The notes under the pieces are model-generated. The model saw only the letters and a list, made by a program, of their open reading frames with translations. It was not told the origin of the DNA and did not search any database. 64,000 bases of DNA from the IMG/VR virus record IMGVR_UViG_2711768037_000005, positions 1 through 64,000 of that record. One strand, 5' to 3'. The stretch is from a virus (taxonomy: Duplodnaviria > Heunggongvirae > Uroviricota > Caudoviricetes). Both the position numbers and the translations under genes were made by a program. Positions 40,702-52,398 of this stretch are shown piece after piece; positions within the stretch are counted from its first letter, which is position 1, and each line of letters starts with the position of its first letter.

Positions 40702-43017
40702 ATGATAAGCATCGTAAAACGTAACGGCCAAACAGAGCCGTTATCCGAAGAAAAATACAACCGCGTCGTAATGTATGGCGTAGAAGGCATTCGTGGCGTA
40801 AGCGCATCCGCTGTAGCAATGGGAGCTGCGACCAGCATTTTTGATGGGATGACCACCAGCCAGTTGCATGAGGCTTTGGTTAAATCTGCCGCTGATTTGA
40901 TCTCACCAGAAGCACCAAATTACTCACAGGTGGCTGCCTGCCTGAACATTTTTAAAATCCGCAAAGATGCCTTCGGTCGTTACGACTATCCGAACTTCTA
41001 CCAACACATTGTCAAGAACGTTAACAAGGGCGTTTATGACAAGGATTTGCTGACACATTATTCGTTTGAAGAGATCGAAGAACTCGGCAATTACATTAAG
41101 CCGAAACGTGACGATCTTTTTGGCTATGCAGCTACGGTGCAGTTGCAAAGCAAATACCTCGTTCAAAACCGTGTTACAGGTGAGATTCATGAGGGGCCGC
41201 AACATATCTATATGCTGGTAGGCATGTGTCTGTTCCAGAATTGGGAAGACGACTGCGCTGGCAAAACACGTATGGAGATGGTCAAAGGTTTCTATGACGT
41301 TACAAGTACGTTCAAACTGTCTCTGCCTACACCAATCATGGCCGGCGTCCGTACTCCAACCCGTCAGTTCTCCAGTTGTGTGCTGATTGAGTCTGGCGAT
41401 AGTCTGAAAGGGATTAGTGCAGCTTCAGCCGCAATTATCGACTACGTTTCACGTCGTGCTGGAATTGGTATTGGTTTTGGCCGTATCCGTGCGCTGGGCA
41501 GCGAGATCCGCAATGGTGAAGCCACCCATACCGGAGTTATTCCATTCCTGAAGCATTTCCAGACGGCTGTTAAATCTTGTTCGCAAGGTGGTGTTCGTGG
41601 TGGCGCAGCAACAGCGTTTTACCCGATCTGGCATCTTGAAGTTGAAAGTCTGCTGGTGGTGAAAAATAACCGTGGTATTGATGAAAACCGCGTTCGCCAT
41701 CTTGATTACGGCGTCATGAGTAACCGTCTAATGTACCGTCGACTCGTCAGAAGCGAGAACATCACTCTGTTCAGCCCGCATGATGTGCCTGATATGTACG
41801 AAGCCTTCTTCACAGACCAGGATCTGTTTGAAAAGCTGTACCATAAATACGAAGCCGATGATTCAATTCGCAAGAAGTCAGTACCTGCCATTGAGCTGTT
41901 CTCATCTCTGATGCAGGAACGAGCGTCCACGGGCCGAATTTATATTGCGAACGTCGATCATATTAATGAGCATGGCGCTTTCATTCCTGCTCTTGCACCT
42001 GTCCGCCAGTCAAACCTGTGCATGGAGATCACTCTACCCACTCGTCCACTGGCATTTACCGACGACCCGAACGGTGAGATCGCGCTATGCACTTTATCCG
42101 CTTTTAACCTCGGAGCCATCCGTTCACTGGAGTCTCTTAAAGAGGTGGCGTTCTATGCCGTTGCTGCACTGGATTCGTTACTGGATTATCAAGACTATCC
42201 GATGGAGGCAGCCGAAGTGCCTGCCAAAGCTCGTCGTAGCTTGGGAATTGGTGTAACCAACTTTGCTTATTACCTGGCAAAGAATGGCGTTCGTTATTCT
42301 GATACCGCTGGCAATAAACTGGTGCATGAAACGTTCGAAGCTATCCAGTATTACCTTCTTGACGCCAGCTGCCGACTTGCCGAAGCAAAAGGTGAGTGTG
42401 ACTGGTTTGAGCAGACCAAGTACGCAATTGGTCAGTTGCCGATCGACCATTACCGTTCTTCATTAGACGAAAGTGGCGAAACCAACTTTGAGTTAAAGAT
42501 GCCGTGGGAAGAACTGCGTGAACGTATTGCAAAATACGGCCTTCGCAACTCCACACTGACGGCACAAATGCCATGCGAGACTTCCAGCCAGATCACTAAT
42601 TCCACCAACGGCATCGAACCGCCTCGTGGCCCGGTGTCAGTGAAATCTTCTAAGGACGGCATCGTCAAGATGGTCGTGCCTGAGTTTGAAAAACTGAAGG
42701 AACAGTATGAATACCTGTGGGATATGCCGGACAACCGCGGCTATCTGACAAAGGTGGCGATCATCCAGAAGTTCTTTGACCAGGCTATTTCAGCCAATAC
42801 CAACTATGACCCTTCTCGCTTTGAAGGCGATAAAGTCCCAATGATGACGCTACTGTCAGATTTGCTTCTCGCCTACAAGATGGGAGTTAAAACGCTTTAC
42901 TACCACAACACCAGAGATGGGGCAGGAAAGCGTGATGACGACGAACCGCAGAATCCACTGACGCAAGCTGTAGCCGTCGAGCCAGAAGATGAGTGCGACG
43001 GGGCCTGCAAAATCTGA
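40702..43017 (+). CDS. nrdA: ribonucleotide reductase class Ia alpha subunit
   Basis: Near-colinear with E. coli NrdA by eye (e.g. LVQNRVTGEI, QFSSCVLIE, GGVRGGAATAFYPIWHLEVESLL, C-terminal CxxxxACKI tail); 771 aa. Confidence 0.9.
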   Translation: MISIVKRNGQTEPLSEEKYNRVVMYGVEGIRGVSASAVAMGAATSIFDGMTTSQLHEALVKSAADLISPEAPNYSQVAACLNIFKIRKDAFGRYDYPNFYQHIVKNVNKGVYDKDLLTHYSFEEIEELGNYIKPKRDDLFGYAATVQLQSKYLVQNRVTGEIHEGPQHIYMLVGMCLFQNWEDDCAGKTRMEMVKGFYDVTSTFKLSLPTPIMAGVRTPTRQFSSCVLIESGDSLKGISAASAAIIDYVSRRAGIGIGFGRIRALGSEIRNGEATHTGVIPFLKHFQTAVKSCSQGGVRGGAATAFYPIWHLEVESLLVVKNNRGIDENRVRHLDYGVMSNRLMYRRLVRSENITLFSPHDVPDMYEAFFTDQDLFEKLYHKYEADDSIRKKSVPAIELFSSLMQERASTGRIYIANVDHINEHGAFIPALAPVRQSNLCMEITLPTRPLAFTDDPNGEIALCTLSAFNLGAIRSLESLKEVAFYAVAALDSLLDYQDYPMEAAEVPAKARRSLGIGVTNFAYYLAKNGVRYSDTAGNKLVHETFEAIQYYLLDASCRLAEAKGECDWFEQTKYAIGQLPIDHYRSSLDESGETNFELKMPWEELRERIAKYGLRNSTLTAQMPCETSSQITNSTNGIEPPRGPVSVKSSKDGIVKMVVPEFEKLKEQYEYLWDMPDNRGYLTKVAIIQKFFDQAISANTNYDPSRFEGDKVPMMTLLSDLLLAYKMGVKTLYYHNTRDGAGKRDDDEPQNPLTQAVAVEPEDECDGACKI

Positions 43018-43122
43018 CATATGGTGGGGTATAACCCCACCTTCTCTTTGATTTGTAAGCCTTGTTTAAACAAATAAGATAACAACTTGTTTAAACACAT
43101 CAAAAAGCAAAAGGAAAAACAC

Positions 43123-44265
43123 ATGTCATATTCAACGTTCCGTTTGGGTGCTAATGATGCAACCAAAGAGCCTATGTTCCTCGGACAATCTGTCAACGTG
43201 GCACGTTACGATCAGCAAAAATACCGTGATTTTGAAAAGTTGATTGAACGTCAATTGTCTTTCTTCTGGCGGCCGGAAGAAGTTGATATTTCGAGCGATC
43301 GTATCGACTTCAACACGAAGCTGCGGGACCACGAACGTCACATTTTTCTGAGCAATCTCCGTTATCAAACGTTACTCGATTCAGTTCAGGGACGTAGCCC
43401 AAATGCAACGCTGCTGCCGCTTATCTCTATTCCTGAACTGGAAACGTGGGTTGAAACATGGTCTTTCTCTGAGACTATCCATAGCCGCAGCTACACCCAC
43501 ATTATTCGTGGCATGGTGGACGATCCGAGCATTGTTTTTGACGGTATTGTTACGGATGAAGAAATCATCAACCGAGCGATCAGTATCTCTGCTGAATATG
43601 ACAGGCTTTATGGGATGACCTGCGAGCGCCAGTCGTTAGGTGAGAAAGAGTTTGAACGTCTGTACGTAAATGAATATGGCTGGGAGCCATATCCTTTGCA
43701 CCGTCAGCTTTTCCGCACGTTGGTGTCCATTAATGCGCTTGAGGCGATCCGTTTCTATGTAAGTTTTGCATGTACGTTTGCCTTTGGCGAACGGAAGTTG
43801 CTTGAGGGTAACACCAAAATTATGCGCTTTATTGCCCGTGATGAAGCTCTGCATTGCGAAGGAACTGAACGCATGATCCGCTTCATGCGTACCGGTCGCG
43901 AAGGTTTATTGTGGAAAGAGATTGCTGCTGATGAAGAAAACGTCATTTACGACACCATGAAATCAGTCGCCGAACAAGAAATGAACTGGGCAGACTATCT
44001 CTTCAAAGACGGTTCGATGATTGGTTTAAACGCGGATATTCTCAAAACCTATGTAAAATACCGCACCAATCTGGCTATGAATCGTCTTGGCCTGAAGGCT
44101 TTATTTCCAGAAGTTACCACTGATCCGCTGGTCTGGATGAACAAGTGGTTGTTAACCGACACACTGCAAATTGCACCACAAGAGGCAGAGCAAAGCACAT
44201 ATCTGGTAGGTCAGATCGATTCTACCGTGGATAAGGCTTCTCTAAGCCAGTTTGCAGACCTGTAA
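43123..44265 (+). CDS. nrdB: ribonucleotide reductase class Ia beta subunit
   Basis: Very close to E. coli NrdB ([38 protein letters not shown]); start at MSYSTF with AAAGGAAAAACACATG context, not the ORF-track 43087. Confidence 0.9.
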
Positions 44266-44342
44266 ACCGATACAAAGCATTATGTGGCCTGGCAACGCTG
44301 GGCCACAATGGATCACAAGAATTAAGAAGGAACAAAACTAGC

Positions 44343-51223: not shown

Positions 51224-51239
51224 TAGATAAGTACAAACT

Positions 51240-51750
51240 ATTCATAAGATAAATTGTAAGTGCTAAGATCTGATAGTTTCCAGTCGTAGACTGGAGACTC
51301 GACCTGATGGGTGGGGGTAAGCGTCACTGGCGTCAGGTTTAAAAAAGCTCACTACCAGCGTAGAACCGGTGCCGTTTAGGTGTCGGGAAAGGGGGAACCA
51401 AAGTGAGCGGAGACAAGGGTCACTTTATGATTGTCGAGTCTGGGGTGTTTCGAGAGGTTGAATCCAGTACTCCCCTTCATAAAGTGTGGGAAGATCTCGG
51501 TTCTGGGGTGCTGTCATCCATAACTTCCCAAGTCTAAGCTGGCAGTAGACTTAGACCATAACTTTTCAGGTTATGAAACGACCAGGTTGGTGAGAGATTT
51601 TTATACTCACCTCCCTGGGAGAGTATTACCTGAAAAGACAACCTCTCACTTCGTTCGAGGTGAACTTCACTCACTTCGTTCGTTCAGTTCAGGTTTATAA
51701 AAACCTGTTCTGGGAAGTAATTTGTTTATTTTAATAATTATTAACACGCA
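51240..51750. ncRNA. candidate structured non-coding RNA or regulatory region (class unknown)
   Basis: About 500 bp with no ORF of 60 aa or more in any frame inside an otherwise coding-dense element; many local hairpins; tandem CTCACTTCGTTCG repeat near 51650-51690; strand undetermined. Confidence 0.25.
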
Positions 51751-51807
51751 CGCGTGTGCGCACGCGCGAGGAAAAAAATCGGCGCGGCGCTTGATTCAGG
51801 AGTTTAT

Positions 51808-52398
51808 ATGACGACGAAGACACCAGCCCGATCGCAAGCAAAAACTCGCAAAAAAGCCAAAAACAAAAATTCTCCCCGCACCAATCCCACAACGCCTGTC
51901 GTAGAGTTCAATCCCCAGCTGAAAACCGTGAAAATCTTCAGTGATGGCTCTTGCCTTAAAAATCCGGGTGGCCCGGGCGGTTACGGTATCGTTCTTCAGT
52001 ATCGTGGAGAGGAACGCGAGTTCTCAGATGGTTTTCATAGCACCACCAATAACCGCATGGAGATGATGGGGGCACTTATCGGGCTGGAGCGTTTGAAATA
52101 TCCATGCAACGTTATTTTGCACTCTGATAGCCAGTATCTGAAAAACGGCATGACACAGTGGATGAAATGGTGGAAACGCAATGGATGGATGACTTCTGAC
52201 AAAAAACCGGTAAAGAATGTTGATCTGTGGAAGCGTCTGGATGAGGCCGCAAGTCGACATAATGTTCGCTGGAAGTGGGTTAAAGGTCACGCCGGGCATC
52301 GTGAAAATGAAATATGTGATCGACTCGCGAAGATCGCAGCTTTTTCAGCAGCAGATATGCCTCACAAGAAAGATATTGGTTTTGTTTATAACAAGTAG
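51808..52398 (+). CDS. rnhA: ribonuclease HI
   Basis: [50 protein letters not shown] closely parallel E. coli RnhA; ATG 51808 with AGGAG RBS (ORF-track start 51754 lies in a GC-rich palindrome). Confidence 0.85.

Follow-up and report, generated by a model that had tools for sequence, protein, structure and literature searches.

An apparently old, conserved nucleotide-metabolism module in an SSU5/pHCM2-type phage-plasmid of Escherichia coli

The DNA considered here (the window, meaning all 64,000 nucleotides (nt) at positions 1 to 64,000 of IMG/VR record IMGVR_UViG_2711768037_000005) carries, at 40702-52398, a series of nucleotide-metabolism and replication-accessory genes. Five of these genes, all on the + strand, were singled out in an original prediction made from the sequence alone, and their positions were given correctly. 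Specifically, nrdA (40702-43017) encodes a 771-residue class Ia ribonucleotide reductase (RNR) alpha subunit, as judged by Pfam, residue and BLASTP comparisons, and nrdB (43123-44265; PF00268) encodes the 380-residue beta subunit. The thyA gene (45382-46485) specifies a 367-residue ThyA-type thymidylate synthase whose PF00303 match falls in two stretches, the dihydrofolate reductase (DHFR) gene (46897-47373; PF00186) a 158-residue orthologue of the SSU5 DHFR (DfrA51), and rnhA (51805-52398) a 197-residue RNase HI with PF00075 at residues 41-179. We regard it as highly probable that 40702-52398 is an old, conserved nucleotide-metabolism and replication-accessory module of an SSU5/pHCM2-type phage-plasmid, with the history and function described below.

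With respect to the identity of the element, the region shares 97-98% nt identity across its whole length with the E. coli phages PhiR41_1, CMS-2020a and Cyrano, and it matches Salmonella phage SSU5 at 76.7% nt identity over 91% of its length. For nrdAB, identity to E. coli plasmids of ~108-112 kb stands at 99.3-99.6%, and gene order is common to the window module, Cyrano and SSU5. Cyrano is the same element as pLF82, an SSU5-like phage-plasmid that makes virions and is present at ~5.5 copies per cell (PMC9928086). Because of these nucleotide identities and the shared gene order, the window is assigned to an SSU5/pHCM2-type phage-plasmid of E. coli. Elements of this type have collinear genomes of ~100-115 kb with a set of SSU5-like core genes and occur as plasmids in Enterobacterales. 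Iterons are also present, with at least 11 copies of ACCGCTGACAGCATA arranged in two clusters at 33232-34985, presumably the origin of the plasmid-mode replicon. The module itself is an already known feature of this very common phage-plasmid family: pHCM2, SSU5 and pLF82 (Cyrano) have the same genes in the same order, and the window is an E. coli-lineage member with no substantive difference. In PMC12928451, which cites Kidgell 2002, pHCM2 is described with rnhA, dhfR, thyA and nrdAB homologues. Indeed, nrdAB, thyA, the DHFR gene and rnhA have been known on pHCM2/SSU5-type phage-plasmids for two decades, and the pattern of the RNR tree has also been published.

The original prediction drew on long peptide runs that NrdA, NrdB and RNase HI were said to share with their E. 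coli counterparts, and these runs are real. In BLASTP comparisons with E. coli K-12, NrdA is 62.5% identical and has 13 identical runs of at least 8 residues, the longest of which spans 21 (KHFQTAVKSCSQGGVRGGAAT); NrdB is 60.5% identical with a longest run of 17 residues, and RNase HI is 60.0% identical over its 155-residue catalytic domain with a longest run of 11. The further description of these proteins as strikingly close to the host versions holds only in a relative sense, as the NrdA proteins of T4 and Cronobacter phage D6b lie similarly near E. coli NrdA (56-58% identity, T4 56%, with runs of 14-19 residues). Window NrdA also shares runs of 16-17 residues with the Vibrio, Neisseria and T4 proteins.

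Both RNR subunits have the features expected of class Ia enzymes. NrdA contains the ATP-cone (PF03477), all-alpha (PF00317) and barrel (PF02867) domains, all above curated cut-offs, and retains C225, N437, C439, E441 and C462, as well as Y730/Y731 and C754/C759 (E. coli numbering; aligned and identical). NrdB likewise keeps the diiron ligands D84, E115, H118, E204, E238 and H241, the radical-bearing Y122, and W48 and Y356, again aligned and identical, and its best PDB matches are the class Ia beta subunits of E. coli and N. gonorrhoeae. Where window and E. coli NrdA agree, the residue is also conserved in 55% of 69 divergent class Ia NrdA sequences, compared with 17% for other sites. This conservation panel, the comparable runs in T4 and the intact catalytic, radical-transfer and metal-ligand residues all indicate that the identical peptides reflect functional constraint. 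The long runs are, on these comparisons, slowly evolving catalytic and allosteric cores rather than traces of recent transfer. Strong constraint, which had been offered as an alternative to recent capture, is thus the sole part of the earlier interpretation left standing.

Trees of NrdA and NrdB were constructed by neighbour-joining on corrected distances with 200 bootstraps, using E. coli, Serratia, Proteus, Aeromonas, Neisseria, Vibrio and Alteromonas as the bacterial taxa. The phage-plasmid copies form one clade with 100% bootstrap support for NrdA and likewise for NrdB, and the bacterial copies form a separate clade, also at 100%, with the phage-plasmid copies outside it. These two clades group with each other to the exclusion of T4, Cronobacter phage D6b and anonymous class Ia sequences (92.5%), and a grouping of the phage-plasmid clade with Enterobacterales received 0% bootstrap support. 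The phage-plasmid genes accordingly occupy deep clades distant from Enterobacteriaceae, essentially the outcome that the original prediction had itself set against recent capture, with the nuance that their sisters are gamma/beta-proteobacterial enzymes and not phage enzymes. A sister-clade relationship between the RNRs of enterobacterial phages and those of their hosts has been reported before (Dwivedi et al. 2013, PMC3653736). The topology is the same here, in that the phage copies fall together beside host-type enzymes and not within them, but the present clade is a temperate phage-plasmid lineage that is separate from the T4-like clade and lies nearer than the latter to the bacterial enzymes.

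The named bacterial NrdA and NrdB references came from PLSDB chromosomes or chromosome fragments mislabelled as plasmids, and anonymous cluster-representative NrdA sequences were used only as outgroups and as the conservation panel. The PLSDB entries NZ_OL790812.1, NZ_AP026896.1, NZ_CP119140.1, NZ_MT039221.1 and others are chromosomal sequences labelled as plasmids; examples of such entries include Proteus (4.09 Mb), Aeromonas (4.94 Mb), N. gonorrhoeae (2.17 Mb) and a Serratia fragment with gyrA-ubiG-nrdAB-yfaE. Mislabelled chromosomes of this kind are usable as references but can mislead surveys of plasmids.

Contigs of phage-plasmid size from Salmonella, Klebsiella, Enterobacter, Xenorhabdus, Morganella and Moellerella encode NrdA proteins 65-87% identical to window NrdA, and every SSU5-like NrdA, irrespective of host, stands at 62-65% identity to the E. 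coli protein (best 65.3%). For the bacterial proteins, identity to E. coli NrdA is 90.9% in Yersinia, 89.8% in Serratia, 86.0% in Proteus, 82.2% in Aeromonas, 76.8% in Neisseria gonorrhoeae (76% as published), 75.3% in Vibrio and 72.8% in Alteromonas. Within the tree set, window NrdA is 59.9-63.9% identical to each bacterial copy, and E. coli NrdA shares 74.5-90.3% identity with the other six (76.3-77.6% for Vibrio and Neisseria). Bit scores against PDB entries are ordered in the same manner: E. coli-N. gonorrhoeae, window-E. coli and window-N. gonorrhoeae score 1362, 1051 and 1009 for NrdA, and 707, 485 and 473 for NrdB, where PDB 7MDI was confirmed as N. gonorrhoeae. A search of 1.84 billion cluster representatives with NrdA returned no full-length match above 58% identity, and a contig scan with NrdA peptide patterns, which proved too specific, returned only two Kluyvera plasmids and a 447-bp fragment.

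At the nucleotide level, synonymous sites are saturated between the window and E. coli (proportion of synonymous differences 0.75-0.81) and near-saturated even between the window and SSU5. The nonsynonymous divergence (dN) of nrdAB is 0.32-0.34 for window-E. coli and about fivefold lower, 0.06-0.07 (0.066), for E. coli-Serratia. G+C content at third codon positions (GC3) is 0.48-0.52 in the five genes, within ~1 standard deviation of the other 57 window genes (0.46, standard deviation 0.06), compared with 0.51-0.66 in the E. coli orthologues. Codon-usage log-likelihoods, the comparison suggested along with the capture idea, favour the element for all five genes.

RNase HI gives a parallel case. 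Its product retains the equivalents of D10, E48, D70, H124 and D134, and its best PDB matches are the RNase HI enzymes of E. coli and relatives, as expected for a bacterial type 1 RNase H, to which class we assign it by sequence. Beyond the SSU5 group, its closest matches are from Kluyvera and Vibrio chromosomes, at 61% each. In the catalytic domain, the E. coli and Vibrio enzymes share 74-76% identity, compared with 60-62% for the window protein against either, and the RNase HI tree contains a bacterial clade without the phage-plasmid copies at 97% bootstrap support. Residues 1-40 (51805-51925) make up a Lys/Arg-rich, low-complexity basic N-terminal extension that E. coli RNase HI lacks; annotated lengths in relatives range from 196 to 254 residues, partly through differing start-codon calls. 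Directly before the rnhA ribosome-binding site, 51737-51800 contains a 24-nt alternating purine-pyrimidine GC-rich tract, CACGCACGCGTGTGCGCACGCGCG, followed by an A7 run and GGCGCGGCGC. This arrangement is conserved in SSU5 and is unusual for an element of 46% GC.

Thymidylate synthase and DHFR had also been called host-like, a description that fits neither protein. ThyA is 33.9% identical to E. coli K-12 ThyA in a BLAST alignment with 90 gap columns, or 45% over aligned columns, and its longest identical run is 17 residues. The gap columns arise from two insertions of ~38 and ~58 residues (at about residues 119-156 and 204-261) that E. coli ThyA and the other solved structures lack, such that the PDB alignment comprises three matched blocks; the first insertion falls at what we take to be the variable 'small domain' site known from Lactobacillus casei thymidylate synthase. 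Nonetheless, catalytic Cys146, R21, R166, D169, N177, H207, Y209 and the PF00303 fold are all retained, which identifies the enzyme, at the level of its sequence, as ThyA-type and not ThyX. The 'ThyX' label attached to this protein in Cyrano is wrong, given the PF00303 match and the PDB alignment. Identity to phages beyond the SSU5 group is at most 37%. For DHFR, BLASTP identity to E. coli K-12 is 37.8%, with no identical run longer than 4 residues.

In the reading that we favour, NrdAB and RNase HI would share a subfamily with the E. coli-type gamma/beta-proteobacterial enzymes, and their genes would have been in the phage-plasmid lineage before the present Enterobacteriaceae and Morganellaceae SSU5-like lineages split, with vertical inheritance since. 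The module would be silent in the plasmid (lysogenic) state. In a published transcriptome table for LF82 lysogens, nrdA (7.6), nrdB (12.9), thyA (11.3), the DHFR gene (8.2) and rnhA (8.4) all stand at the local background. During lytic growth, the module would probably be transcribed from the element's own operator-bearing promoters, raising the supply of deoxyribonucleoside triphosphates (dNTPs) and thymidylate and processing RNA-DNA hybrids for the element's own replication.

Viewed most simply, the module may provide precursors and accessory replication functions for the lytic cycle, in analogy to T4 nrdAB/td/frd. The T4-type dNTP genes (nrdA, nrdB, td, frd) likewise give a phage its own class Ia RNR, ThyA and DHFR for the supply of DNA precursors. 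T4-like NrdA, however, is only 49-52% identical to window NrdA and falls outside the phage-plasmid plus bacterial clade. Unlike T4, the window element is temperate and its module is silent in lysogeny, and no introns or inteins were seen; T4 RNase H, moreover, is a different, FEN-type enzyme.

Among the explanations that compete with an old phage-plasmid module, one holds that recombination or gene conversion between phage-plasmid and host genes keeps stretches identical, a notion related to the original suggestion that these genes could act as recombination substrates with the host chromosome. The identical peptide runs and the presence of both copies in the same cell fit such exchange. The DNA itself does not: identity to K-12 is 67% for nrdA, 74-78% for nrdB (in three short segments of 59-403 nt) and 68% for rnhA, and in BLAST searches against K-12 genes thyA matches were confined to short patches and folA gave no DNA match. 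The longest exact matches are 13 nt in nrdA, 18 nt in nrdB, 11 nt in rnhA and 14 nt in thyA, and codons agree at only 42-51% of identical amino acids. RecA-dependent recombination in E. coli reportedly needs roughly 25 nt or more of perfect identity, a figure that goes back to Shen and Huang in 1986 and that none of these matches reaches. Across 5,426 complete E. coli genomes, all chromosomal nrdAB matches lie at 60-80% identity and 201 of 204 plasmid matches at 95% or above. No allele at 80-95% was found in this set, and so hybrid nrdAB alleles were not seen, nor did any of its chromosomes carry phage-plasmid-type nrdAB at 80% or above. Since the longest exact match is 18 nt and intermediate alleles are absent from these genomes, homologous recombination of the module genes with their host counterparts appears very unlikely, and we consider ongoing exchange extremely improbable as the source of the similarity.

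Recent capture, in which nrdAB and rnhA would have been taken from the chromosome of a member of the Enterobacteriaceae not long before the present E. coli phage-plasmid came into being, can draw on the long identical peptides, on the restriction of all known hosts to Enterobacterales, and on a protein identity to E. coli (60-63%) above that to any phage beyond the SSU5 group (at most 52%). Set against this, the proteins lie equally far from E. coli, Serratia, Proteus, Aeromonas, Vibrio and Neisseria, they are not nested in a host clade, and the 62-65% identity to E. coli NrdA recurs in each SSU5-like NrdA from any host. The saturated synonymous sites, the fivefold excess in dN over E. coli-Serratia, the element-like GC3 and a DNA identity of only 67-74% all point the same way, leaving recent capture with very little probability. 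The outcome is corrective in this regard, as the module genes are not recent host acquisitions. An older capture from an early member of the Enterobacterales or a close gammaproteobacterial host, followed by faster evolution that produced the basal position as a long-branch effect, fares somewhat better. It accords with the sister relationship of the phage-plasmid clade to the E. coli-type bacterial clade and not to T4-like phages (92.5%), with a host range confined to Enterobacterales, with the frequently faster evolution of mobile-element genes, and with the host-like C-terminal tails of NrdA (CxxxCKI) and NrdB, which fit continued use of host redoxins. On the other hand, the trees give no bootstrap support to phage-plasmid plus Enterobacterales, the distance to Vibrio equals that to E. 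coli, and Enterobacterales-specific states occur at 0 of 4 informative NrdA columns, a very small sample (no NrdB column was informative). We therefore judge old capture to be unlikely and retain the view that the genes were established in the phage-plasmid lineage before its present branches separated.

Several points weigh against this preferred view. The trees are neighbour-joining trees with few bacterial taxa, and a faster rate in the phage-plasmids could drag an intra-Enterobacterales clade to a basal position. The copies used for Vibrio and Alteromonas are carried on megaplasmids, and the chromosomal orthologues may be different genes. Transfer from a gammaproteobacterium may also underlie the Neisseria nrdAB, for which reason an age greater than the gamma/beta split is not claimed. 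In addition, the origins of ThyA and DHFR resolve only to 'not host-like', and low lysogenic expression of the module is known from one strain.

The DHFR encoded in the window is of further interest with respect to drug resistance. It is 90.5% identical to SSU5 DHFR, which is the trimethoprim-insensitive DfrA51 that raises the trimethoprim minimum inhibitory concentration 64- to 128-fold (PMC12217456). In that work, mutation of A6, I13, D26 or S48 lowered resistance, and all four residues are present in the window protein. Compared with the phage-plasmid enzymes DfrA50 and DfrA51, window DHFR is the positional orthologue of DfrA51 with key residues kept, and it differs in ~10% of residues. It is accordingly a distinct allele from dfrA51, given that a difference of at least 2% marks a new gene in the describing paper (PMC12217456). 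The insensitivity of the SSU5 orthologue and the retained key residues suggest that window DHFR is functionally unlike host FolA; it is likely trimethoprim-insensitive and carried silently by a very common plasmid type. This orthology is relevant to resistance surveillance, as ~700 sequenced plasmids carry the module.

In terms of regulation, a promoter scan found one promoter-like site upstream of nrdA, TTGATA-17-TAACAT at 40634-40662 (+), whose spacer contains a 20-bp palindrome, ATAGGTAAGTGCTTATCTAT (40637-40656). A second module copy of this palindrome lies directly before the methyltransferase gene (50184-50203), and the pattern ATAGGTAAG-NN-CTTAYCTAT occurs at six sites in the window (24884, 28404, 35953, 40637, 50184 and 57370) versus 0.04 expected, all 20-130 nt upstream of + strand gene starts. 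In SSU5, a perfect copy (GGTAAGTACTTACC) lies just upstream of the promoter of a candidate RNA described below. A regulator encoded by the phage-plasmid itself probably uses this palindrome as its operator. The region upstream of nrdA is near-invariant in SSU5 and Kluyvera and can still be recognised in plasmids of Klebsiella and Moellerella, and its conservation despite saturated synonymous sites suggests that nrdA is controlled by the element's own regulator.

A 9-bp GC-rich hairpin with a T-run (40663-40684, +) follows, 18 nt before the nrdA ATG, with a predicted RNA fold of -17.8 kcal/mol (z -4.1). It resembles both a terminator and a single NrdR box, CCACTATATTTAGTGG (40666-40681). Nowhere else in the 64 kb does a sequence come within 3 mismatches of the NrdR-box consensus, and the window box is similar to box 2 of E. 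coli nrdA. The box of the E. coli gene reads CCCCTATATATAGTGT, and E. coli nrdA has two such boxes 30 bp apart, the tandem arrangement (~30 bp) that characterizes the NrdR regulon. At the window site, inspection by eye revealed no second box ~30 bp to either side, and the NrdR-like box is missing at the equivalent position in Moellerella. NrdR regulation of phage-plasmid nrdA was consequently not adopted, the box being single, terminator-like and not conserved in Moellerella.

Apart from the protein-coding genes, one feature of the module deserves an independent look. A candidate structured non-coding RNA of ~460 nt, recognized through conservation and covariation, lies on the + strand at 51276-51735, between a small gene and rnhA. 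In a sliding comparison, 51297-51726 is 92-100% identical to SSU5, compared with ~75% in the flanks and 74% overall. The sequence occurs in at least 687 PLSDB plasmids, in nearly all of them with 90% identity or above and almost never annotated, and also in 12 phage records and ~70 IMG/VR contigs; the E. coli chromosome shows no similarity to it except in two integrated copies. Rfam 15 returned no match at gathering thresholds and nothing credible at E <=10 in 51150-51850, three tRNA genes being the sole Rfam matches in the window at gathering thresholds, and searches for a tRNA or transfer-messenger RNA at this site were likewise negative.

An RNAalifold analysis of 48 distinct copies (446 columns) yielded a multi-helix structure in which 8-11 base pairs show compensatory changes. 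The alignment contains 58 compensatory cells versus 14.6 (standard deviation 2.9) in shuffles, with 0 of 500 shuffles reaching 58, and slid controls gave 1-5. Canonical pairing holds in 99.6% of cells on the + strand, compared with 88.1% for the same pairs on the - strand, and variable columns are twice as frequent at unpaired as at paired positions. The minimum free energy of the single sequence has z = -4.2. A conserved extended -10 element, TGcTAAGAT, is located at 51261-51269 (TGaTAAAAT in SSU5). These features are compatible with a plausible ~460-nt gene model in which a multi-helix core is flanked by a 5′ hairpin maintained through compensatory changes and by a 3′ hairpin with a U-rich tail.

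The same stretch includes a 44-residue open reading frame (51403-51537), annotated in Cyrano as CYRAN_81, which was rejected as a protein gene in view of 1-nt indels that break the frame in otherwise conserved copies (L027, L050). Substitutions across it showed no three-base periodicity by eye. In the published LF82 lysogen table, CYRAN_81 has an expression value of 117, ~14x that of rnhA and 9-19x those of the other quoted module genes, with neighbours at 6-13. These results exclude both a protein-coding gene and membership of any Rfam family. We tentatively propose, as a possibility that falls somewhat short of even, that 51276-51735 (+) is an undescribed SSU5/pHCM2-specific structured RNA of ~460 nt, expressed in lysogeny and much more constrained than any of the neighbouring protein genes. 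Such an RNA could serve in lysogeny control, in replication (for instance as a primer or an R-loop RNA connected with the neighbouring RNase HI) or in host interaction. If real, it would be a new handle on the maintenance and regulation of very common phage-plasmids in clinical Enterobacteriaceae.

A comparison may be drawn with ColE1 RNA II and RNase H. As in that system, a conserved structured transcript of several hundred nt would lie beside an RNase HI gene, and the candidate RNA is followed by an AT-rich stretch and then by GC-rich sequence with an A7 run. Unlike ColE1, there is no sequence or Rfam similarity, the iteron replicon lies elsewhere (33.2-35.0 kb), and the candidate RNA is expressed while rnhA is at background, so that a priming role is speculation. 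No antisense target of 13 nt or more was found in the window, and a limited literature search on non-coding RNAs of pHCM2 or SSU5 found nothing relevant, which is weak evidence of absence. With blastn and nhmmer, no significant homologue was detected in the distant lineages represented by Klebsiella hvKP859 and the Moellerella plasmids. The Klebsiella pneumoniae hvKP859 plasmid has at the same place upstream of rnhA a non-homologous 650-nt intergenic region (L021, 5475-6124, - strand), which starts with an operator-like palindrome and a terminator-like hairpin and may be a positional analogue of the candidate RNA.

The remaining annotated genes of the module, all on the + strand, are interspersed among those discussed above. 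Downstream of nrdB lies a gene for a MazG/PRA-PH-like nucleoside triphosphate pyrophosphohydrolase (44343-45221; PF01503, with Cyrano and SSU5 annotation), and thyA is followed by one for a small HAD/PNKP-phosphatase-like protein (46487-46900), which is supported by Cyrano annotation and a weak PF25109 match below the curated cut-off. After the DHFR gene come Pfam-identified genes for a P-loop AAA_28/kinase-like protein (47373-48017), a DnaQ-like 3′-5′ exonuclease only 29% identical to E. coli DnaQ (48508-49062; PF00929) and a phage-type DNA N6-adenine methyltransferase (Dam; 50203-50808; PF05869). Two further sequence elements recur in the window. An AT-rich palindrome, AAACAAnTTGTTT, occurs at 2991, 5013, 17131, 29545, 43068-43097, 53284 and 54013, ~20-40 nt upstream of gene starts, among them the site between nrdA and nrdB. 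The block AAAGGAAAAACACATG surrounds the ribosome-binding site and start codon and is common to many window genes.

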